Source: Methanocaldococcus sp. 28A (GTDB taxonomy: Archaea > AGJL01 > Methanococci > Methanococcales > Methanocaldococcaceae). From it: a DNA stretch of 64,000 nucleotides. The translations under genes were made by a program, and so were the position numbers. Below, in pieces: positions 1,183 to 63,444 of this stretch (position 1 is its first letter; each line of letters opens with the position of its first letter). The notes beneath the pieces were generated by a model, which did no database searches, was not told the DNA's origin, and saw only the letters and a list, made by a program, of their open reading frames with translations. The DNA lies in assembly GCA_049852185.1 (NCBI GenBank), contig CP187540.1; one strand, given 5' to 3'.

Positions 1183-2196
1183 ATGAGTAGAGATGCTAAT
1201 CCATTCAAAAAAATGCCAACAATCTTAATGCCTGATGAATTGATGGCTAAAGCTTTAAGAAGAGGAGAAAAAGTTGCAAATGAGATGAGAAAGAAAGAGT
1301 TACCCTGGCTATTAAAAGCAAGATTTGTGGAAGAACATAAAGTAAGAACAATAGCCTCAGTTGTTGCTGATAATTTACAAAAAGTTATAGACAAAACACC
1401 TCCAGTAAGAAAGCTTCCTAAATTTTATCAGGAGATGGTTGAAGTTTTAGTAGGAATAGATGATTTCAAAAAATCTATGGGAGCGTTTAAATGGGCATCT
1501 GAATTAGTTAGAAAATTAGGTAATGAATATGCAAGAAAAATTAGAAAAGCAAAAACTCCACAACAGGCAGGAAAATTAAGGAAGGAATTTGTTGGTAGAG
1601 TTAAATCTATATTAGAGCAGATTCATCCAGAGATGGCATTTGTTGCTGTAGCAAGAGAGAAGCTAAAAGATTTGCCAACATTCAAAGACCTTCCAACTGT
1701 TGTTATTGCAGGTTATCCAAATGTTGGTAAATCAACATTATTAAAAAAACTTACTGGAGCTGATGTTGAAATAAATAGCTATCCTTTTACAACTAAGGGA
1801 ATAAATGTTGGATATATTGGAGAGATTCAGATGGTTGATACTCCTGGATTGTTAGACAGACCTTTATATGAAAGGAATGATATTGAGTTACAGGCTATTT
1901 TAGCTCTCAACTATTTGGCTAATTTAATTTTATTTATAATAGATGCCAGTGAATTTTGTGGTTATACTATAGATGAGCAGATAAATCTATTAAAAGAAAT
2001 AAAAGAGTTGTTTAAAGTCCCTATTGTTGTAGCCATAAATAAAATTGATTTAGTAAATGAAGAAAAAATTAAAGAAATTGAAAAGAAAGTAAGAGAAGTA
2101 GGAATTGAAAAAATATTAAAAATCTCAGCAGAAAAAGGTATTGGATTAGAAGAATTAAATAGAACTTTCGCATCCACATTTAAATACTTAGATTAA
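1183..2196 (+). CDS. NOG1-family GTPase; last ~11 codons supplied by the adjacent IS end
   Basis: GYPNVGKS, YPFTT, DTPG, NKID motifs; reads into the IS TIR at 2160. Confidence 0.9.
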   Translation: MSRDANPFKKMPTILMPDELMAKALRRGEKVANEMRKKELPWLLKARFVEEHKVRTIASVVADNLQKVIDKTPPVRKLPKFYQEMVEVLVGIDDFKKSMGAFKWASELVRKLGNEYARKIRKAKTPQQAGKLRKEFVGRVKSILEQIHPEMAFVAVAREKLKDLPTFKDLPTVVIAGYPNVGKSTLLKKLTGADVEINSYPFTTKGINVGYIGEIQMVDTPGLLDRPLYERNDIELQAILALNYLANLILFIIDASEFCGYTIDEQINLLKEIKELFKVPIVVAINKIDLVNEEKIKEIEKKVREVGIEKILKISAEKGIGLEELNRTFASTFKYLD

Positions 2197-3294
2197 CGAT
2201 AAACCAATTTCTTCACACAAAGAGATTATGGCATTACCAACGGCTATTCGATTTAGTTTTCTTCTAAGTTCGTACCAACTGATATTTTTATCGATTCTAA
2301 TTTTCTCTAAGAGGTAGAAGGCTCTCATAGAAAGGGAGATATGACCTAAAATTGGAAATTTTTTTCTAACGAAGAAATTGCCTGTATTACAGCACTGTTT
2401 AACACCCCTATGGAATTCCTCGATTCTCCAAGAGGCGTTTTTGACCTCTTGGAATTCTTCGAAACTCATAAATAGGTTATTAGTTATATAATATTTTGCC
2501 TTTCCGTTTTTGGAAAGGCAGAAGAGTCTAACATAGCCAACTTTTCGTAGATAAACGATTAATCCATTCTTAGGAATTTCCTTAAGGTCTTCGATTGATA
2601 CCCACTTTCCGTTTTTGGAGAGTTTTACCTTTCTATTCCTTTTAATTCTGCAGAGGTAGAATAAACCTAAACTATCGATAAGTTTTAAGTTATCTTTACT
2701 TGAATACCAACTATCGAAACAGATATATCTAATATTTAATCCTTTATCTACTAAAGACTTTATTATCTCCCTACATAAATTATTTTTCGTCTTTCCATCT
2801 CTTGGTCTGTCATATACTCTAAAATCGATTGGAATAATATGTTTTCCATTTGTAATTATGCAATCAACGATATGTATGCCTTTAATTACTCGTTTATGTA
2901 GATTACTCCAACAATAATAAGCAAATTCAGTCGATTTAGAGTAAATTTTATCTATAACAAAGTCATCTATAACGACAATATTATAATCAGGAGTGATTAA
3001 ATCTTTAACGAAATTAAAAAGCTTTTCTTGTGGGAAGATTCCTTCTTCCCAAAGTATTCTATTTATTGTATCGTGAGATATGTCGATTCCGAAAATACGC
3101 AACGTTTTCGATAACTCTACACACGAATTAATCTCTGAAAGTAATATAAAAAGCATATAAACGATAGTCCTCGACATTTTTAGCATATTTTCCCCAAAAT
3201 AAACTTTTTGTTTCGAAAAATTATAATATCTAATAAAAATAGATTATCATGAAATGTTATAATAAAATATTTAAATATGCTTGCAAAAGTCCTA
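2160..3294 (-). mobile_element. IS701-like insertion sequence, copy 1
   Basis: TIRs TAGAACTTTCGCA / TGCAAAAGTCCTA; near-identical to 16828..17962; flanks (TTAAA / TAATA) do not form a TSD. Confidence 0.9.
2188..3186 (-). CDS. IS701-family DDE transposase
   Basis: VIDD..DK, FDSWY, WxIEEFHRGVKQ motifs. Confidence 0.9.
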   Translation of the reverse strand: MLKMSRTIVYMLFILLSEINSCVELSKTLRIFGIDISHDTINRILWEEGIFPQEKLFNFVKDLITPDYNIVVIDDFVIDKIYSKSTEFAYYCWSNLHKRVIKGIHIVDCIITNGKHIIPIDFRVYDRPRDGKTKNNLCREIIKSLVDKGLNIRYICFDSWYSSKDNLKLIDSLGLFYLCRIKRNRKVKLSKNGKWVSIEDLKEIPKNGLIVYLRKVGYVRLFCLSKNGKAKYYITNNLFMSFEEFQEVKNASWRIEEFHRGVKQCCNTGNFFVRKKFPILGHISLSMRAFYLLEKIRIDKNISWYELRRKLNRIAVGNAIISLCEEIGLSLI

Positions 3295-3327
3295 TAATAA
3301 TAAGTAATATATAACTATCCTATAATA

Positions 3328-8371: not shown

Positions 8372-8536
8372 ATTATTTTCTTTATCCATTTATCTAACAT
8401 CTCTAAAAAATTACCTTCGCATAGGACTTCGCCCTATTGCTATACCCAGGATGCATTGCTTCCCTTAGGAAGCAATGCCTCTTAAATTATTATTTTCTTT
8501 ATCCATTTATCTAACATCTCTAAAAAATTATCTTCG
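8372..8536. repeat. 48-bp direct duplication (8372-8419 / 8489-8536) flanking a 69-bp family C hairpin cassette (8420-8488)
   Basis: 47/48 identity between copies; insert holds hairpins ATAGGAC-TTC-GCCCTAT and GCATTGCTTCC-CTTA-GGAAGCAATGC. Confidence 0.9.
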
Positions 8537-9975: not shown

Positions 9976-10605
9976 ATGGATTTAAAAGATATAAAGTTGA
10001 GGAAGATTATAGAAATATTAAGTTTAATTTTTACATTTGAGATAGTTATTTCTTTTATATTATCAACTTATAACCCTTCCTATCAAGATTTGTTAATAAG
10101 ATTAGATTATATTTCGATAATATTCTTTACCTTTGAATTTATATACAACTTCTATTATGCTAAAGATAAAGCAAAATTTTTTAAAGATGTTTATAATATT
10201 GTTGATGCTATAGTCATATTTGCATTCATACTATATTCTTTACAGATATTCTATTCAAAAGCGTTTTTAGGCCTAAGAGTAATAAATATTTTAAGAATTT
10301 TGGTTCTACTTAGAATAATTAAGTTGAGGAGGTTAAAAGAAAATCAGGAATTATTTAACTTTTTATCACTATTAATAATTTGCTTTATTTCTTCATGTTT
10401 AATATGGATTGCTGAATCAGGTGTAAATCCTGCAATAAACAATTTTTTTGATGCTTTTTATTTTACAACAATATCTATAACAACAGTAGGTTATGGAGAT
10501 ATAACTCCAAAAACAGCAGCTGGGAAGCTGATAATAATATTCTCTGTCTTATTCTTTATTTCTGGATTAATTACATCATTGCAAAAGGCTTTAAAGGGAG
10601 AGTAA
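9976..10605 (+). CDS. mvp: Hyperpolarization-activated voltage-gated K+ channel (MVP-like)
   Basis: S4 LRVINILRILVLLRIIKLRR, TTVGYGD filter. Confidence 0.88.
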   Translation: MDLKDIKLRKIIEILSLIFTFEIVISFILSTYNPSYQDLLIRLDYISIIFFTFEFIYNFYYAKDKAKFFKDVYNIVDAIVIFAFILYSLQIFYSKAFLGLRVINILRILVLLRIIKLRRLKENQELFNFLSLLIICFISSCLIWIAESGVNPAINNFFDAFYFTTISITTVGYGDITPKTAAGKLIIIFSVLFFISGLITSLQKALKGE

Positions 10606-10910
10606 CCATAGAGGGGGCGTAGCCCCCTCTATTGGGATACTCCCCCATAAGCTTGTATTAGTTTAATAATAAGAGGCATTACCGAGCGAAGCGAGGTAAT
10701 GCATCCCGGGTATTCCGAACCATAGGGCTAACGCCTTATTGATATGAACCTTTTAGAAAAAGGTTCATCAAAAAATTTGGGGTATACCAATAGGGGCATA
10801 GCCCCTATGGTTCGGGATACCCAAAATTTACACCTCTGCCAAAGGCAGAGGTGTTAGGGAGTATAGCAATAGAGGGTTTCCCTCTATGCGGTGTTGAGCC
10901 CTATGGTTAT
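10602..10910. repeat. Family C composite hairpin cassette (~309 bp, 7+ stem-loops) flanked by 19-bp direct repeats (10583-10601 / 10911-10929)
   Basis: GC-rich island; terminal IR TAACCATAG / CTATGGTTA; flanking repeat AAAAGGCTTTAAAGGGAGA. Confidence 0.9.
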
Positions 10911-10933
10911 AAAAGGCTTTAAAGGGAGATTAA

Positions 10934-11929
10934 ATGGACACTTATAAAAAAATAAAGCTTGGTATATTGGTAATTATCTTACTCATATTAATTGAATCAG
11001 TAATATTGATGACAGTTGAGGGTTGGGATTTCTTCACAGCTTTTTATACTGCAGTTGTTACAATCTCAACAGTTGGTTATGGAGATTACACACCAAAGAC
11101 ATTTATTGGAAAGCTCTCTATCATAATATACATATTTGCTGGGGTAGGAGCAGTTGCATATACTATGGGAAATATAGCAGGGTTTTTTATTGAGGGGCAT
11201 TTTAAAAAATACTTTAGGTTGAGAAAAATGATGGATAAAATCAAAAAACTAAACAACCATTATATAATATGTGGTTATGGAAAATTGGGAAAAGTTATAG
11301 TTGAAGAATTAAAAAAATGTGGAATTCCATTTGTAGTTATTGATTCAGATGAGAAAATATTGGAAGAAGCTCTTGAAAAAGACCCAAATCTTATATGTAT
11401 TGTAGGAGATGCCACATCAGACGATATTTTAAAAAAGGCAAAGATTGAAAAAGCTAAAGGATTAATTTCAGTAGTTACTTCAGATGCTGAAAATGTCTTT
11501 ATTACTCTTTCAGCAAAGAAGTTAAATCCAAATATTTATGTGGTAGCAAAAGCAGAAAAACCATCAACTCTTGATAAGTTAATAAAAGCGGGTGCTGATA
11601 GGGCTGTGTGTCCATATATAGTTGGAGGAATGGAAATTGCAAGAATTGCATTAAATCCAGATGTCGTTGAATTTATTCACTCCTTAGTAGCTACAGAAGA
11701 AGACATGGAAGTTAGGAGGTATATTTTAAAAAATAAAGAACTTGACAATAAACTTTTAAAAGATTCAAAAATTAGAGAAAAAACTGGAGCTACTATTTTA
11801 GCTATTAAAAAAGGAGATAGAATGATTACGAGTCCTCCTCCTGATACAGTAATTAATGTTGGAGATATAATATATGCTTTTGGTACTAAAGAACAGCTTG
11901 AGAAGTTAAAAAAATATGTTGAAGAATGA
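10934..11929 (+). CDS. RCK-gated 2TM potassium channel (MjK1-like)
   Basis: TVGYGD filter, GYGKLG RCK-N, TrkA-C. Confidence 0.9.
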   Translation: MDTYKKIKLGILVIILLILIESVILMTVEGWDFFTAFYTAVVTISTVGYGDYTPKTFIGKLSIIIYIFAGVGAVAYTMGNIAGFFIEGHFKKYFRLRKMMDKIKKLNNHYIICGYGKLGKVIVEELKKCGIPFVVIDSDEKILEEALEKDPNLICIVGDATSDDILKKAKIEKAKGLISVVTSDAENVFITLSAKKLNPNIYVVAKAEKPSTLDKLIKAGADRAVCPYIVGGMEIARIALNPDVVEFIHSLVATEEDMEVRRYILKNKELDNKLLKDSKIREKTGATILAIKKGDRMITSPPPDTVINVGDIIYAFGTKEQLEKLKKYVEE

Positions 11930-16759: not shown

Positions 16760-16827
16760 TAGACTTTTGCGGGAATAACTAATAATGAACTTTGAGGCTT
16801 TTAGCATCATGAATACCTTAAATGAAA
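16760..16827. mobile_element. Left half of a family B element interrupted by IS701-like copy 2
   Basis: Begins TAGACTTTTGCGG; matching right ends at 17975-17987 and 18029-18041. Confidence 0.55.
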
Positions 16828-17962
16828 TAGGACTTTTGCAAGCATATTTAAATATTTTATTATAACATTTCATGATAATCTATTTTTATTAGATATTATA
16901 ATTTTTCGAAACAAAAAGTTTATTTTGGGGAAAATATGCTAAAAATGTCGAGGACTATCGTTTATATGCTTTTTATATTACTTTCAGAGATTAATTCGTG
17001 TGTAGAGTTATCGAAAACGTTGCGTATTTTCGGAATCGACATATCTCACGATACAATAAATAGAATACTTTGGGAAGAAGGAATCTTCCCACAAGAAAAG
17101 CTTTTTAATTTCGTTAAAGATTTTATCACTCCTGATTATAATATTGTCGTTATAGATGACTTTGTTATAGATAAAATTTACTCTAAATCGACTGAATTTG
17201 CTTATTATTGTTGGAGTAATCTACATAAACGAGTAATTAAAGGCATACATATTGTTGATTGCATAATTACAAATGGAAAACATATTATTCCAATCGATTT
17301 TAGAGTATATGACAGACCAAGAGATGGAAAGACGAAAAATAATTTATGTAGGGAGATAATAAAGTCTTTAGTGGATAAAGGATTAAATATTAGATATATC
17401 TGTTTCGATAGTTGGTATTCAAGTAAAGATAACTTAAAACTTATCGATAGTTTAGGTTTATTCTACCTCTGCAGAATTAAAAGGAATAGAAAGGTAAAAC
17501 TCTCCAAAAACGGAAAGTGGGTATCAATCGAAGACATTAAGGAAATTCCTAAGAATGGATTAATCGTTTATCTACGAAAAGTTGGCTATGTCAGACTCTT
17601 CTGCCTTTCCAAAAACGGAAAGGCAAAATATTATATAACTAATAACCTATTTATGAGTTTCGAAGAATTCCAAGAGGTCAAAAACGCCTCTTGGAGAATC
17701 GAGGAATTCCATAGGGGTGTTAAACAGTGCTGTAATACAGGCAATTTCTTCGTTAGAAAAAAATTTCCAATTTTAGGTCATATCTCCCTTTCTATGAGAG
17801 CCTTCTACCTCTTAGAGAAAATTAGAATCGATAAAAATATCAGTTGGTACGAACTTAGAAGAAAACTAAATCGAATAGCCGTTGGTAATGCCATAATCTC
17901 TTTGTGTGAAGAAATTGGTTTATCGTTAATCTAAGTATTTAAATGTGGATGCGAAAGTCCTA
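16828..17962 (+). mobile_element. IS701-like insertion sequence, copy 2 (1135 bp), 5-bp TSD TGAAA
   Basis: TIRs TAGGACTTTTGCA / TGCGAAAGTCCTA; TGAAA at 16823-16827 and 17963-17967. Confidence 0.93.
16936..17934 (+). CDS. IS701-family DDE transposase
   Basis: Differs from copy 1 at two residues I could see. Confidence 0.9.
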   Translation: MLKMSRTIVYMLFILLSEINSCVELSKTLRIFGIDISHDTINRILWEEGIFPQEKLFNFVKDFITPDYNIVVIDDFVIDKIYSKSTEFAYYCWSNLHKRVIKGIHIVDCIITNGKHIIPIDFRVYDRPRDGKTKNNLCREIIKSLVDKGLNIRYICFDSWYSSKDNLKLIDSLGLFYLCRIKRNRKVKLSKNGKWVSIEDIKEIPKNGLIVYLRKVGYVRLFCLSKNGKAKYYITNNLFMSFEEFQEVKNASWRIEEFHRGVKQCCNTGNFFVRKKFPILGHISLSMRAFYLLEKIRIDKNISWYELRRKLNRIAVGNAIISLCEEIGLSLI

Positions 17963-18129
17963 TGAAATATAAATTGTGAAAGTCTTATAGTTTTTAAGAC
18001 TTCAATTCATGCATTAAACATTTATTTCTGTGAAAGTTCTATGCTAAAAATAAACAATAGCTCCCTTAGGAGAAACTTTTTTATATGTAAAAAGAGATTT
18101 TTCAGCTGATGCATTAGTGGTGATTATTT

Positions 18130-26079: not shown

Positions 26080-27366
26080 ATGAGCAAAACTATAAAAATA
26101 AAGGAGGGAGAGAGAATTAAAAGAAGAGCACTTTTAGTTTTAAGAAAAGATAGTAAGTTTGACAGTAAAAATATAGAAGAACTAAAAGAATTAGCTGAAG
26201 TCCTTTACAATCCAATAAGAACAGTAGTTCAAATAAGAAAGCCAGACCCAAAATATCAAATTGGTAGTGGATTAGTAGAGAGAATTGCTGAAAAAATTAA
26301 AGAGGAAAATATAGATATTGTTATAGTTGGGAATCAGCTAACTCCTTCACAAAAATATAACTTGGCTAAGAAATTCAAGGTTGAAGTTATTGACAAGATT
26401 GAACTAGTTTTGAGAATATTTTATAAGCATGCGAGAACTAAAGAAGCTCAATTACAAGTTAGATTGGCAGAGTTGCAGTATGAATTGCCAAGAGCAAGGG
26501 AAAAGGTTAGGTTGGCTAAGATGGGAGAGCAACCAGGATTTGGTGGATATGGAGATTATGAGGTTGAAAAATACTATCAGAAAGTAAAGAGGGAGATTTC
26601 AAGCATAAAGAGGAAATTAGAGAAGCTTAGAGAACATAGAAGAATAGCAAGAAAGAGCAGAGAGAAGTTTGATTCAGTAGGTTTGATTGGTTATACAAAC
26701 GCAGGAAAAACAAGTTTATTAAATGCTCTAACTGGAGAAAGTAAAGAATCAAAAAATCAAGTTTTTACAACATTAACTACCACAACAAGAGTTATAAAGG
26801 GCATTAAAAGGAAGATATTGGTTACTGACACAGTTGGATTTATCGATGATTTACCACCATTTATGATTGAGGCATTTTTATCAACAATTGAAGAAAGTGC
26901 AGATAGTGATTTAATTTTGATTGTTGTTGATGCATCTGATGATATAGAAGAAATTAAAAGAAAATTAAAGGTAAATCATGAAATTCTAAGTAAAATTAAT
27001 TGCAAATCACCAATAATAACTGTATTTAACAAAGTAGATAAAATTACAGAAGATAAAAAGAGAATGATTTTGGAGAAATTGAATAGATATATTGTAAATC
27101 CAATATTTGTTTCTGCAAAATATAATACAAATATTGATTTGTTAATTGAGAAAATTATTGATAATCTAAACTTATCAATAGGAACAATAGAGACAAACAA
27201 TCCAAAACTCATATCTTATTTATATGAAAATACTGAGATTATTGAAGATATTTTAGATGAAGACAAACACATAATAACATTTAGAGCTAAAGAAAGAGAT
27301 GTAAATAGAATTTTAAAGTTGCATAAAACTACAGCATATAGTTGTGTGCAAAACTATCTTAAATAA
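26080..27366 (+). CDS. hflX: GTPase HflX; C-terminus extended by a MITE
   Basis: HARTKEAQLQV, GYTNAGKTS, DTVGFI, NKVD. Confidence 0.95.
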   Translation: MSKTIKIKEGERIKRRALLVLRKDSKFDSKNIEELKELAEVLYNPIRTVVQIRKPDPKYQIGSGLVERIAEKIKEENIDIVIVGNQLTPSQKYNLAKKFKVEVIDKIELVLRIFYKHARTKEAQLQVRLAELQYELPRAREKVRLAKMGEQPGFGGYGDYEVEKYYQKVKREISSIKRKLEKLREHRRIARKSREKFDSVGLIGYTNAGKTSLLNALTGESKESKNQVFTTLTTTTRVIKGIKRKILVTDTVGFIDDLPPFMIEAFLSTIEESADSDLILIVVDASDDIEEIKRKLKVNHEILSKINCKSPIITVFNKVDKITEDKKRMILEKLNRYIVNPIFVSAKYNTNIDLLIEKIIDNLNLSIGTIETNNPKLISYLYENTEIIEDILDEDKHIITFRAKERDVNRILKLHKTTAYSCVQNYLK

Positions 27367-27449
27367 AATAAGGAAATTAGTGAATGCCTTTCTTATGGAA
27401 GGAATTCAAATTGTCCTTATAAAAGTTTATTTTATTTTGCACACAACTA
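27339..27449. mobile_element. Family A MITE inserted in the original hflX TAA stop
   Basis: Perfect TIR; removing the element and one TA restores GCA TAA. Confidence 0.92.
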
Positions 27450-27460
27450 TAAATTTTTAG

Positions 27461-28890: not shown

Positions 28891-29473
28891 ATCACTACAC
28901 TGAATCGGTCTGATTTTAATGGATTATCTTCCTCATCTAAGCATAAACTAAATACAAAGTTTCCATACCGAATCGGTCTTATTTTAATGTTATCACATCT
29001 ATAAGCCTATAAACATAAACATAGTAGGGTGTTTCCATACCGAATCGGTCTTATTTTAATGAAAATTAGAAATTATTCATAAAAGTTATTCATAAAATTA
29101 GGTTTCCATACCGAATCGGTCTTATTTTAATAAGCATATGAGAACAAACTAAAAGAGATAGAAAAAGGTTTCCATACCGAATCGGTCTTATTTTAATAAA
29201 AGTAATGGTAATACATATTTAGTTTATATTGAGTTTCCATACCGAATCGGTCTTATTTTAATTTAATGTAAAATATAGAGCGTTAGAGGAATGTATGAAC
29301 GGTTTCCATACCGAATCGGTCTTATTTTAATTTGCAATCAATGTTGTTGTGGTTGCAGTTGTAATAATTTCCATACCGAATCGGTCTTATTTTAATAGTA
29401 AAAGGTAAGGCAAATATTATAAAAGCTAAAAAGAAGATGTTAAATTTCCATACCGAATCGGTCTTATTTTAAT
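28891..29473 (-). CRISPR. CRISPR array: 9 repeats (8 intact, 1 degenerate), 8 spacers of 35-47 nt; no cas genes in window
   Basis: 30-bp repeat ATTAAAATAAGACCGATTCGGTATGGAAA(C/T) on the minus strand; plus-strand starts 28891, 28959, 29031, 29102, 29168, 29233, 29302, 29367, 29444. Confidence 0.97.
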
Positions 29474-34394: not shown

Positions 34395-35072
34395 TTTAAG
34401 CTTAATTATTAATTCCCCAAACAATTTTTCCTGAATTAACTCTGCCTTTCCATCATTAGCTAAGTATAAAGAGGGAATAAAATACCTTACTCTCTCTTCC
34501 TTTGTTTTAAACCTTTCCTGATAAATTATAATCCCCTCTTTCATTAAATCTTCTAAGAGCTCTGCTATTATGTCTGAAATATCTTCATCTTCTATAAGCT
34601 CTTCTATAATCTCTTCAACTTCATTTATCTTTTTTTCCCTCTTTTTTTTAGATTTTTTTACTTTATTTAGCTCTTTCTCGATAGTTTTAATTAATTCCTC
34701 AACAGTAACTGGCTTTTTACTTTTTTTATTTTTTTCTTTATCTTCTTTTTCCTTTTTTCTGCTTTTTTTTGGTTTATTCTCTATCTCATCGTAGTAATAA
34801 TCATCATAGTATTCATAATCATCATCCTCTTCAACTTTGCATTCGTCATATAGCGCTTCAGATTTCATTCTCAATAAGATGCCTCCAACAAGAATAACAT
34901 CGGCAGACAACCTAATATCAAACTTTTTAAGCTCTTTGATTTTTTGAATATAATAATCTGCTACTTCAGCAATATTTATATCCCAAGGATTTAGATTTTT
35001 TTTCTCTATCCCCTCTTTAATCATTCTAACCCAAAAAACAATGTCAAAATTGGCATCAACCATAACAATCAT
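34386..35072 (-). CDS. scpA: Segregation and condensation protein A (kleisin)
   Basis: NPWDINI...LLRMKS...QEKLFGE. Confidence 0.85.
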   Translation of the reverse strand: MIVMVDANFDIVFWVRMIKEGIEKKNLNPWDINIAEVADYYIQKIKELKKFDIRLSADVILVGGILLRMKSEALYDECKVEEDDDYEYYDDYYYDEIENKPKKSRKKEKEDKEKNKKSKKPVTVEELIKTIEKELNKVKKSKKKREKKINEVEEIIEELIEDEDISDIIAELLEDLMKEGIIIYQERFKTKEERVRYFIPSLYLANDGKAELIQEKLFGELIIKLKSF

Positions 35073-35075
35073 CCT

Positions 35076-35140
35076 CCATAGAGGGGCAAAGCCCCTCTAT
35101 TGGTATACTCCCCCATAAGCTTGCCTTTTTATTTAATAAT
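35076..35140. repeat. Family C single module
   Basis: CCATAGAGGGGC-AAA-GCCCCTCTATTGGTATACTCCCCCATAAGCTTG, near-identical to 10606-10670. Confidence 0.85.
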
Positions 35141-51022: not shown

Positions 51023-51197
51023 TATTTCACCTCTACAATTCTTATATTTTTAAATTATGTTCATTTTTTATTACTTAAAGTTCTTAATTTTTTATGTTAT
51101 TTTTTATGTTTATGAAGTTCTATAAAAACTTATCTATAATTAATTAATTTAAATAATAAAAAATTTGCAAAATTTATAAAAATAAAAAATAAAAATA

Positions 51198-51305
51198 TAG
51201 TTGTGTGCAAAATAAAATAAACTTTTATAATGGCAATTTGAATGCCTTCCTTATGGAGTATTCATTATTACCTTATTTTATTTAAGATAGTTTTACACAC
51301 AACTA
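51198..51305. mobile_element. Family A MITE-like element
   Basis: TIRs (1 mismatch), TA flanks. Confidence 0.88.
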
Positions 51306-51431
51306 TAAAAGTTGCTAAAATCTGAAAAGGACATAACTGTTGAAGGATGCTAATAATCAATTTTAAATTAAAATTTAAAAATTTTAGTTAAAAATGGCTC
51401 TATTTTATTGAATTATTTATGTCATAGCACC

Positions 51432-61400: not shown

Positions 61401-62034
61401 TATCCCTATCCCTTTCGGGATTCGGGACTACGCTGAATAAGATATTTCTTGCACCATTAACATCTGCATTAATAACCGTTCCACACTCAGAACAAACATA
61501 TAAACCTCTGTATTTCCTATTTGATTTCTTTATTACTCCACAAACACTGCATTTTTGAGATGTATAACTTTCATCCACCAACTCCACTGATATTCCTTCT
61601 TCTTCAGCCTTGTAGGTTATTCTATGTATTAGTTTTCCGAACGGAATTTTATGGAATTTTTCGTTATTTTTTCTACCTATGTCTATATTTGAAAAATTAT
61701 TAGTTAAATTCCCTACATATCCCTATCCCTTTCGGGATTCGGGACTACGCTGAATAAGATATTTCTTGCACCATTAACATCTGCATTAATAACCGTTCCA
61801 CACTCAGAACAAACATATAAACCTCTGTATTTCCTATTTGATTTCTTTATTACTCCACAAACACTGCATTTTTGAGATGTATAACTTTCATCCACCAACT
61901 CCACTGATATTCCTTCTTCTTCAGCCTTGTAGGTTATTCTATGTATTAGTTTTCCGAACGGAATTTTATGGAATTTTTCGTTATTTTTTCTACCTATGTC
62001 TATATTTGAAAAATTATTAGTTAAATTCCCTACA
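61401..62034. repeat. 317-bp tandem duplication within the tnpB 3' end
   Basis: 61401-61717 repeated at 61718-62034; identical shadow ORFs in the track. Confidence 0.93.
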
Positions 62035-62891
62035 ACAATCTTCGAAACTCTCTTTTTTTTCGCTAAATTAACAATCCATTTACTAATCTTATGAATGTAG
62101 TCATTTACATAATTCCTTTCCTTCACTGTTAATCTTGCCAATCGCTTGCAATTTTTTAACCCCTGTTTTGCAATTTCTGACTTAATTTTTGCTATCTTCT
62201 TAGCAAACCCTCTTAATTTAGACAATAAAATTTTCCCATCGAATATGAGAGATTGTTTTTCTCCTTGTATTACTGTAGTTGCTAAGTTCTTCACTCCTAA
62301 ATCTATTGCCATTACTTTTTCTTTCTTAGGTTTCTCTGGATTAATTTCCTTTTTATAAATCAAATGCAATACATAAAACCTTTGTCCATAAATATCGTGT
62401 GGAACTATTTCAACTTCTTTAACTTGCATGGCATCGAGCGGTAGAGTTTTCGAGAACTCTACCCATAGGAACTTGGACTCGATGCCATGCTTTTCTTTGA
62501 GATACTGTCTTGTTTGCTTCGATAAAGACAATCTCAGCTTATTACCGATAATTTTAAATCCATCTTTTTTCCATTTCACTGGATAATGTCCGTTCTTTGG
62601 TTGAAATCTTGGTCTCTTCGTATGTTGTTTAAAGCAGTTTAGCCAAGCGATTTTTAGTTTCTGCAAAACAGCCTGAGCTGATTGCGAATGAAGGTTTTTA
62701 TACCAAAAGTTAGTTTTCAGTTTCTTTTCTAATTCATTAATCTTTATATTGCATTGTATAACTTGATAGTTAGCTACATTCCATAGTTTCGATGCAGAAT
62801 AAGTTAAATGGTTTAAGATAATCCATTGTTCGTCAGTTAATTTTCTTGTTAGATTTATCGTTAAAACTCTCGTTACTTCCAACTCAGACAC
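61713..62891 (-). CDS. tnpB: RNA-guided nuclease TnpB (C-terminus altered by the duplication)
   Basis: AIDLGVKN RuvC-I, VDESYTSQxC, zinc ribbon, ADVNGARNI RuvC-III. Confidence 0.92.
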   Translation of the reverse strand: MSELEVTRVLTINLTRKLTDEQWIILNHLTYSASKLWNVANYQVIQCNIKINELEKKLKTNFWYKNLHSQSAQAVLQKLKIAWLNCFKQHTKRPRFQPKNGHYPVKWKKDGFKIIGNKLRLSLSKQTRQYLKEKHGIESKFLWVEFSKTLPLDAMQVKEVEIVPHDIYGQRFYVLHLIYKKEINPEKPKKEKVMAIDLGVKNLATTVIQGEKQSLIFDGKILLSKLRGFAKKIAKIKSEIAKQGLKNCKRLARLTVKERNYVNDYIHKISKWIVNLAKKKRVSKIVVGNLTNNFSNIDIGRKNNEKFHKIPFGKLIHRITYKAEEEGISVELVDESYTSQKCSVCGVIKKSNRKYRGLYVCSECGTVINADVNGARNILFSVVPNPERDRDM

Positions 62892-63315
62892 CTTTCTGGC
62901 TGTCTATATATTGCCTAATAACATCGAGAGTTACTGTTCCAACGGTGGATATAAATCTACCTCGAGTCCATAGAGTAGGAAGTTTTCTTTTTAACTCTGG
63001 AAACTCATATCTTAATTTATTTGAGGTATATCCTTTAATTTGTGCTACGATTTTATTTATTCCGATTGTTGGGTCTGCATCTAACAGTAGATGTACATGG
63101 TCTGGTGCAATAACCATGTCTAAAACTTCTGTATTTAGTTCCTTACATTTTTCTCTGATTAACTCCTCCAATCGTTCTTTTATCTTACCCGTTAAAACAG
63201 GTCTTCGATATTTCGGACAGAAAACAACATGATACTGACAACTATACACAATGTGCTTGCCCATGTCGTGGTGGTATTTCTTTGGTGGGGATTTCAACTC
63301 CATAATAACCACCAT
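62884..63315 (-). CDS. tnpA: IS200/IS605 Y1 HUH transposase
   Basis: YHVVFCPKYRR, PDHVHLL, YIxxQ. Confidence 0.95.
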   Translation of the reverse strand: MVVIMELKSPPKKYHHDMGKHIVYSCQYHVVFCPKYRRPVLTGKIKERLEELIREKCKELNTEVLDMVIAPDHVHLLLDADPTIGINKIVAQIKGYTSNKLRYEFPELKRKLPTLWTRGRFISTVGTVTLDVIRQYIDSQKGV

Positions 63316-63444
63316 ATATTATATATGACAACCTTATATATTAATTTTACAATATTTAATTAACACATCTAACACATAAAATAAGTCCCCACCCACCTCC
63401 CCTAATTCATCACCGCCCTAAAGGGCGGTGCTTTCTTAGCGACA

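Follow-up and report, generated by a model that had tools for sequence, protein, structure and literature searches.

A composite hairpin island between two K+ channel genes of Methanocaldococcus sp. 28A and a family of GC-rich repeats flanked by long, variable duplications

In Methanocaldococcus jannaschii, Suyama, Lathe and Bork reportedly described (FEBS Lett, 2005) three groups of palindromic repeats, MJRE1-3, amounting to 141 elements and 14.3 kb; these are said to be extragenic, of low identity and present in dozens of copies per group, with some lying within coding regions that remain unbroken. Retroposons that lack long terminal repeats (non-LTR; the long and short interspersed nuclear elements, LINE and SINE) display target duplications of variable length, AT-rich 3' tails that also vary and, where the 5' joint is made, short homologies, and REPINs are not known to carry target-site duplications. 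Repetitive extragenic palindromes (REP sequences) usually exceed 100 copies per genome (PMC2817692), and Replitron-1 and Replitron-N1 of Chlamydomonas, which spread by copy-and-paste, have a precise left end, a right end that bears a hairpin and is followed by a variable stretch, and duplications of variable length (PMC10288648). We report here on a 309-nt island of GC-rich hairpins located between two K+ channel genes of Methanocaldococcus sp. 28A (GenBank assembly GCA_049852185.1, contig CP187540.1; the source genome, G000 below) and on the repeat family to which its modules belong. The DNA analysed, referred to as the window, is a stretch of 64,000 nt (C1:768001-832000) of the 1.556 Mb chromosome, which has 29.7% GC; positions without a prefix are those of the window.

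The island is enclosed by two copies of AAAAGGCTTTAAAGGGAGA that are identical over 19 nt (23 nt with one mismatch), and its GC content of 0.40-0.50 contrasts with 0.17-0.32 in the genes upstream. Four core palindromes (~10596-10644, 10708-10740, 10779-10822 and 10857-10889) and one half copy (10897-10908) alternate with linker hairpins at 10673-10705 (91%), 10744-10768 (100%) and 10830-10854 (100%), while 10708-10727 is the inverted complement of 10803-10822 (95%). The repeat search recovered the flanking repeats and every hairpin and inverted pair listed in an earlier note drawn up on this DNA. When folded as single-stranded DNA, the island gave z = -13.4 for the plus strand and -12.6 for the minus strand, with equal folding in none of 100 shuffles. 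The location of its parts is shown in Table 1.

Comparison with other genomes of the genus demonstrates that the island is a true insertion, made once at the channel junction. The downstream channel gene is present in 17/17 genus genomes, and in seven of the 16 relatives it follows an intact junction, GGGAGATTAA continued by ATGG (...AAAGGGAGATTAA and ATGG), which corresponds to G000 minus the island and one repeat copy. Excision of the insert together with one copy gives GGGAGATTAAATGG, as found in these seven relatives, so that the coupled junction is restored as the earlier note had claimed. Two genomes (G004 and G009) have other short junctions without the island, and in five of the 16 relatives the upstream channel gene is missing from this position. 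Two relatives, G014 and G006 (locus L023), carry islands that have both the duplication and the terminal A modules in common with G000, and the named record CP187551.1 contains the same island as G014; because duplication and end modules are shared by three genomes, a single insertion event is indicated. In the relatives with an empty site the upstream channel gene ends with ...GGA GAT TAA. In G000 the last codon and stop (GAG TAA, within GGA GAG TAA) are made at the left edge of the insert, which supplies the TAA, and the downstream open reading frame (ORF) starts behind the second GGGAGA. Both the new stop and the kept ribosome-binding site had been described in the earlier note. The insertion left the two channel genes intact.

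The interior of the island was later changed by whole modules and by loop flips. In G014 it measures ~133 nt and consists of an A hairpin, an F hairpin and an inverted A; in G006 (~272 nt) the same modules are accompanied by a spacer, an A variant and an A+B unit in inverted orientation; compared to G006, the G000 island contains a further D hairpin and an extra A, while half of its terminal A has been lost. The additional block of G000 (10708-10807) shows 93% identity to C1:1299293-1299393, which indicates that whole blocks move between loci. Between the orthologous islands of G000 and G006 the loops are flipped, the B apex reading GAGCGAAGCGAG in the former and TCGCTTCGCTCG in the latter, as is also the case for the F loop (Table 1). 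The module-by-module change proposed earlier is borne out by this one insertion with different module sets in three genomes. In addition, the identity between G000 and G006, ~82% in the surroundings, reaches 91-95% at ~10280-11080, the same interval in which identity between G000 and its closest relative, G014, falls from 95-98% to 88-93%. This shift around the island shows that the island allele moved between lineages by homologous recombination, on a tract of ~0.8 kb, and hence that alleles of the channel genes were exchanged between Methanocaldococcus species.

Table 1. Features of the channel junction and related hairpin units in the window
Feature	Position	Strand	Evidence or remarks
Another member of the family: A+B unit at 8415-8486, with exact 42-nt direct repeats on either side (8372-8413 and 8489-8530)	8372-8530	+	
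Ion_trans (MVP-like) K+ channel gene, 209 aa	9976-10605	+	Pfam Ion_trans/Ion_trans_2
Left copy of the 19-nt target duplication	10583-10601	+	Repeat search
Composite inserted island, 309 nt	10602-10910	no strand	Repeats, GC, folding, empty sites in relatives
A-type long palindrome A1	10603-10648	+	100% identity over 49 nt to C1:1046830-1046878
Complete A+B unit	10668-10745	-	nhmmer E 8.9e-16; covariance model E 9e-13 (G000:C1:778668-778745)
B hairpin of the minus-strand A+B unit	10670-10706		
Degenerate A hairpin of the minus-strand A+B unit	~10707-10742		
D-type hairpin (ATGAACCTTTT/AAAAGGTTCAT) and A-run	10744-10777	+	Among filled genomes at the channel junction, in G000 only
A-type palindrome A3	10778-10822	+	Right arm is the inverted complement of 10708-10727
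F-type hairpin	10830-10854	+	Common to all three filled genomes; loop AAA in G000, TTT in G006
Short-loop A-variant palindrome (10857-10889), then truncated terminal A half (10897-10910)	10856-10910	+	
Right copy of the duplication	10911-10929	+	Provides the downstream gene with its ribosome-binding site, GGGAGA
TrkA_N/TrkA_C-type K+ channel gene, 331 aa	10934-11929	+	Pfam Ion_trans_2, TrkA_N and TrkA_C
Solo A-type palindrome, then the same CCCCCATAAGCTTG as after A1	35070-35123	+	Flanking repeat looked for, none found

The modules of the island belong to a dispersed family that occurs in varied combinations, as the earlier note had anticipated and as blastn, nhmmer and a covariance model all indicate; two further places in the window, one with a full A+B unit and one with a solo A-type palindrome, were also confirmed (Table 1). 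The basic unit of ~72 nt is asymmetric and comprises hairpin A (..CCATAGGGC-loop-GCCCTATTGG..), hairpin B, and then CTCTTA and an AT-rich tail. B is the second hairpin in most copies, F or others take its place in some, and D can replace A. BLAST comparison of the island with its own genome yielded 63 blastn high-scoring segment pairs in 33 clusters, and nhmmer detected 16 A+B units in G000 at E < 1e-5. The covariance model, R1, was built on 13 sequences with 23 pairs and its matches were counted at E <= 0.001, a threshold on which the counts depend; some of the genomes compared are incomplete (81-89% complete). Under these terms R1 matches were found in 15/17 genus genomes with 0-41 copies per genome (G000 17, G001 36, G002 39, G003 2, G004 0, G005 41, G006 27, G007 23, G008 7, G009 0, G010 22, G011 24, G012 32, G013 23, G014 12, G015 1 and G016 10). 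At the level of the class, 18 of 40 Methanococci genomes have matches, with 0-44 copies each: by genus, 14/16 in g1 besides G000, 2/2 in g5 (9 and 44 copies) and 1/1 in g4 (4 copies), with none in g2 (0/7) or g3 (0/13). An exact IUPAC pattern of hairpin B retrieved seven public stretches, all of them in Methanocaldococcus or Methanocaldococcaceae records. When B alone was searched for in G000, the 15 best of 31 matches (E up to 50) were all preceded by an A or D hairpin, and none of these 15 revealed a longer, autonomous element that ends in hairpin B.

Two more loci of G000 (C1:664848-664872 and C1:90081-90104) show a D-like hairpin followed by a short hairpin that has the apical TCGCTTACGCTCG of B on a different stem; since this motif is found on differing stems, it is the apex that seems to be the conserved part. 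Hairpin units are also found before the start codon of two paralogous G000 genes (C1:1291100-1291500 and C1:1430160-1430700; products MKFYDRERE... and MRFFDREKE..., respectively), and their position ahead of both start codons indicates that the gene duplication included the unit. Just upstream at the first of these two loci lie solo ends (TGCGAAAGTCCTAT) of the insertion sequence (IS) of the DDE type that is also found in the window.

The main new result is that long flanking duplications of variable length characterise the family and not this locus alone. Its units have entered sites at which related genomes show the empty state, and the target is duplicated over 12-69 nt, here 19 nt. In G000, exact flanking repeats of at least 12 nt occur in 9/32 clusters as opposed to 23/2000 random placements of the same geometry. 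Exact duplications at 11 G000 sites measure 12, 13, 14, 14, 16, 19, 21, 23, 27, 42 and 43 nt and, when a few mismatches are allowed, repeats of 12-43 nt flank 12 of 22 G000 islands, the left copy ending no more than 2 nt from the A hairpin in 11 of these 12. For the loci of relatives, 92 nhmmer hits were reduced to 70 full-length copies with enough flanking sequence, four of which come from G000, and a repeat abutting the A end was found in 40/70 copies vs 22/1500 random controls. After merging orthologues these represent 30 distinct sites with lengths of 19-69 nt (median ~42), plus one 115-nt case in a CRISPR array. The length is thus not fixed and has no preferred value near the 30 or 37 nt of the CRISPR repeats. 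True empty sites are available for five insertions. Besides the channel-junction island these are L074, L075 and L063, whose duplicated stretches of 50, 41 and 59 nt, respectively (that of L063 takes in the ribosome-binding site and ATG), are single copy in G000, and C1:1494736, where the duplication is identical at 43/43 positions and occurs as a single copy in G014, G006 and G005. A doublet form (L005/L014) has inverted A hairpins at both ends.

The duplicated stretch usually spans the edge of a functional unit, namely the last codons and stop of a gene, a ribosome-binding site with the ATG and first codons, the 3' end of a tRNA gene (L112, L120 and L100, the tRNAs being confirmed by Rfam search) or a CRISPR repeat (in G006 and G000). 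As the intact copy of the duplication stays joined to the gene body, nothing is lost; with tens of bases present twice, each stop codon, ribosome-binding site, tRNA 3' end or CRISPR repeat is preserved, and through this survival of gene edges the elements persist at gene junctions. Surveys of junctions and stop codons bear out what the earlier note had said of gene junctions as recurrent landing places. The tail-side edge of the duplication is the last base of the stop codon at 6 of ~17 distinct sites at ORF 3' ends, and is within 3 nt of it in 11; elsewhere it corresponds to the ATG or ribosome-binding site, to the tRNA CCA or to the first base of a CRISPR repeat, and the DNA just outside it is an AT-rich spacer. 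One hot spot, where TAA is followed by GGTGAAAAGATG (C1:1494736), carries A+B in G000, A and an F-type hairpin in G001, and A and another hairpin in G007, which indicates that the modules are combinatorial. The length of the duplication differs among these three genomes and the site is empty in G014, G006 and G005, a pattern that reflects either repeated hits on the junction or loss by recombination between long repeats.

Several observations relate to CRISPR loci. Two types of CRISPR repeat were found in G000, one of 30 nt (Rfam CRISPR-DR13) at 28959-29473 (minus strand) of the window and one of 37 nt at C1:184.8-186.3 kb. The first repeat of the 37-nt array (L073, C1:184656-186311) is split by an insertion composed of an A and an A+B unit, and its first 21 nt are duplicated. 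In G006, at least 9 of 27 units are inside CRISPR arrays, and a unit occupies a spacer-like place flanked by two CRISPR repeats. An A+B unit is located 87-174 nt upstream of cas1 in four genomes (G005:C1:343788-343859, G012:C39:9005-9077, G013:C125:1166-1237 and G016:C1:2157-2240), probably as one old orthologous insertion.

The A+B unit has unlike ends and no terminal inverted repeats. Its A end is sharp (0-6 nt before CCATAG), while the B end is fuzzy, with an AT-rich tail of 0 to ~24 nt ahead of the right repeat; the tails share a loose consensus only (TTAAATTAAAAT...) and are cut at different points. Homologies of 4-8 nt between target and element end occur at some A-side and B-side joints. 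Where tails do match, the copies occupy one and the same site in relatives, lie at paralogous loci or are found within CRISPR arrays. Some apparent tails are decayed duplication, as is part of the one seemingly shared by C1:1291147 and C1:1430284, which is a duplicated paralogous gene region. The two strands differ in their loops: on the strand complementary to the A-to-B reading, GCGNAGC closes hairpin A in 40/80 copies and hairpin B in 44/81, as compared with 4 and 0 copies, respectively, on the other strand, and the whole chromosome (1.55 Mb) contains only 88 GCGNAGC words. The heptamer d(GCGAAGC) and its relatives with GNA loops form unusually heat-stable DNA mini-hairpins; if this applies here, one DNA strand has to fold.

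Taken together, we find it rather likely that the island is a composite copy of small, non-autonomous, GC-rich hairpin elements that are mobile, or were until recently, in hyperthermophilic Methanococcales, and that spread by copy-and-paste, either by way of single-stranded DNA or by switches of template while DNA is replicated or repaired. Of the components of this reading, the existence of a mobile hairpin family with intrinsic long and variable duplications is highly probable, while the single-strand or template-switch route is put forward tentatively, with our confidence in it short of even. Along this route the unit would be copied as, or from, a single strand with folded hairpins, the folded strand being the one capped by GCGNAGC. 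One joint would be made at the edge of an AT-rich spacer and the other on the opposite strand at a distance of 12-69 nt, or else once the template has been switched back upstream, and fill-in would then duplicate the interval between the joints. The work could be done by host enzymes or by an unrecognised enzyme, and composite islands would arise from later recombination or template switching between A cores. That these elements represent an unrecognised sort of prokaryotic mobile DNA, with no enzyme of its own or with a host enzyme, copied from a folded strand, landing at the edge of AT-rich spacers and making duplications of 12-69 nt, is conceivable but in our view doubtful.

Several points weigh against this interpretation. 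Neither an enzyme nor an intermediate was identified by the searches for RVT_1, Y1_Tnp, the local DDE IS and Cas1, and no de novo event was seen. The duplication is undetectable in 30/70 copies and in 10/22 G000 islands, which may be old or may have arrived in another way. In the 81 tails listed, no correspondence was found to the sequence beside a parent copy at another, unrelated locus. The precision of the tail-side edge is not predicted by the model and is accounted for only in part, since selection explains tolerance but not precision. At C1:1494736 the states ignore relatedness, and loss by recombination between the repeats, or allele exchange, is indistinguishable from repeated insertion. 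Compensatory changes are found in 10/23 of the stem pairs predicted by R1; given the loop flips, palindrome-templated correction could produce such changes without selection on an RNA. Finally, the thermostability invoked for strand folding is that reported in the literature for d(GCGNAGC) mini-hairpins.

Other explanations differ mainly in the enzyme that they call for. The architecture of the family resembles that of REP sequences, bacterial interspersed mosaic elements (BIME) and REPINs, with which it shares short, intergenic, GC-rich imperfect palindromes at gene junctions, mosaic clusters of alternating orientation with varied linkers, and inverted doublets (PMC2817692, PMC3337134, PMC3116915), and in its shortest form the island, with a spacer enclosed by a pair of inverted A hairpins, is REPIN-like; a Y1_Tnp gene is even found inside the window. 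Mobilisation by a RAYT, a transposase of the Y1 HUH type, is nonetheless very unlikely and, for the genus, this reading is largely refuted: Y1_Tnp (PF01797) occurs in 3/17 genus genomes, once broken, against 15/17 for the repeats, and the gene in the window is that of an ordinary IS200/IS605-type element (61713-63430, minus strand; tnpA 62884-63315, tnpB 61713-62891) whose end hairpin (CACCGCCCTAAAGGGCGGTG, 63411-63430) is unrelated to the modules. Moreover, the target duplications are long, the 0-44 copies per genome amount to tens rather than hundreds and stay below the usual figure (PMC2817692), the 5' GTAG/CGTC tag is lacking while ATAG lies inside the stem, and the basic unit is asymmetric with two different hairpins. 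The membership in a REP/BIME system proposed in the earlier note is therefore not supported as far as mechanism is concerned; the data suggest an element that is BIME-like in architecture without being a REP/RAYT system, and for which we infer a non-autonomous copy-and-paste mode. A SINE-like retroposon, in which a small A+B RNA with an AU-rich 3' tail would undergo target-primed reverse transcription into staggered nicks, would fit the sharp 5' (A) end, the fuzzy AT-rich 3' tail, the variable duplication, the short homologies at some A-side joints and the tail-side joint at the edge of AT-rich spacers. Yet RVT_1 (PF00078) reverse transcriptases were detected in 0/17 genus genomes, when the control search was positive in 3/14 named genomes, the GNA triloops, a feature of DNA hairpins, cap both hairpins on the strand complementary to the presumed RNA, and no longer partner element ending in B emerged from the B-only matches described above. 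We also know of no internal promoter in archaea, and consider this retroposon reading improbable.

Integration by an enzyme of the Cas1 family typically yields duplications of tens of bases, with a length fixed by the enzyme. Through off-target CRISPR adaptation or a casposon-like process, units might enter as oversized spacers, with the attacked interval being duplicated; the spacer-like unit of G006, the split 37-nt repeat of G000, the copies upstream of cas1 in four genomes and the presence of Cas1 in 17/18 bearer genomes all agree with such a scenario. It remains unlikely in view of the duplications, which vary more than fivefold in length without preference near 30 or 37 nt, of the fuzzy end, of inserts of 72-310 nt vs spacers of ~35-47 nt (gaps between repeats), and of the occurrence of Cas1 in 10/22 repeat-free genomes as well, G004 included. 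Long and variable direct repeats are a feature of IS1634-type elements, so that a miniature transposable element with inverted repeats (MITE) moved by a DDE transposase that makes such duplications was also considered, and the inverted-repeat tip of the local DDE IS (its first 7 nt, ATAGGAC) resembles the A stem. This is exceedingly improbable: the A+B unit has no terminal inverted repeats, no long flanking repeats were found at the copies of the local DDE IS, and its transposase, the one DDE family searched, is present in 4/40 class genomes vs 18/40 for the repeats. A classical MITE was rejected on the absence of inverted ends in the basic unit and on a duplication length that is not fixed. 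The enzyme search was confined to RVT_1, Y1_Tnp, the local DDE IS and Cas1, and none of these can be taken for the cognate enzyme, any further Rep, DDE or recombinase family lying beyond its scope. The statement of the earlier note that the window has no cognate enzyme stands insofar as the window transposases are not co-distributed with the repeats, and fails insofar as tnpA/tnpB and DDE transposase genes are present there, unlinked to the modules. Alternatively, the hairpins could be host-selected RNA structures and not mobile DNA, acting as 3'-end stabilisers, terminators or processing sites between genes, as the strong folding, the paired stem changes and the frequent placement right after stop codons or ahead of ribosome-binding sites would allow. 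As the sole explanation this is most unlikely given the presence/absence polymorphism with target duplications, the 0-44 copies among close relatives, the insertions in CRISPR arrays and at tRNA ends, and the lack, tRNA and CRISPR aside, of any Rfam family at gathering threshold in the window, the island and 20 other element loci. The window matched only CRISPR-DR13 and the 20 loci only tRNA and CRISPR-DR39, while the island with lax filters scored at best 27.8 bits against a gathering score of 100; the hgc RNAs are presumably among the Rfam families. A secondary role as RNA, acquired after insertion, may exist and is compatible with the mobile-element interpretation.

Within the genus, the hairpin repeats probably overlap MJRE1-3, to which they are likened by description and not by sequence: both are palindromic, extragenic repeats of Methanocaldococcus. 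The abstract on MJRE is said to mention no long variable duplications, fuzzy end, strand-specific loop caps or junction hot spots. Given MJRE1-3, the status of an undescribed family, as put forward in the earlier note, is doubtful. The MJRE repeats are cited in PMC2229807 and PMC2996958; in their accessible portions, the RepRanger article (PMC12306157) gives generic palindrome counts only, for two Methanocaldococcus genomes, and a review of MITEs (PMC10969869) does not list the genus. The literature searched yielded no account of elements of this kind in archaea. As to the insertion signature, the closest match appears by analogy to be Replitron-1, with its sharp left end, fuzzy right end and variable duplication, followed by target-primed retroposons. 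Replitron-1 differs in being eukaryotic, kilobase-sized and the carrier of a Rep HUH enzyme, and its fuzzy end is traceable to the parental flank, for which no case was found among the 81 tails analysed here; in the accessible portion of that article its duplications are not reported as tens of bases (PMC10288648). The non-LTR retroposons depart from the present family by the missing RVT_1 and by loop motifs that here point to DNA hairpins. Cas1-family integration shares the duplications of tens of bases and the location of some copies between CRISPR repeats, but not the variable length.

It is unusual for mobile elements of microbes to duplicate tens of bases of their target. If the elements do represent an unrecognised sort of prokaryotic mobile DNA, this would be the first prokaryotic element with the signature of a sharp end, a fuzzy end and a variable duplication that is known from eukaryotic retroposons and Replitron-1, and the long duplication would make insertion harmless at stops, starts, tRNA ends and CRISPR repeats, and perhaps reversible. 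Should the signature hold, hyperthermophilic archaea would possess a route of transposition, or of template switching at replication, that operates without a recognised transposase. The spread of repeats through a genome made up almost wholly of genes would also be explained, the duplicated gene edge being the element's own "repair". Annotation pipelines will misread what such duplications produce, namely spurious starts and ends of genes, pseudo 3' halves of tRNAs and odd CRISPR "spacers", and the filled and empty sites could be used as strain markers for Methanocaldococcus.

Two other repeated elements were noted in the window. The DDE IS is 1137 nt long, encodes a 332-aa transposase (DDE_Tnp_2, ISC1217-like) and is located at 2159-3295 (minus strand) and 16827-17963 (plus strand); G000 has 9 full copies of at least 98% identity, with the inverted repeat ATAGGACTTTTGCA. 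The second is an AT-rich element of ~115-125 nt with 17-nt terminal inverted repeats (TATAGTTGTGTGCAAAA), found at 27337-27451 and in ~100 further places in G000, 51188-51310 of the window among them. With ~100-fold coverage in the self-BLAST it is by far the most abundant repeat of this genome; it is unrelated to the hairpin modules and may also be one of the published MJRE groups.

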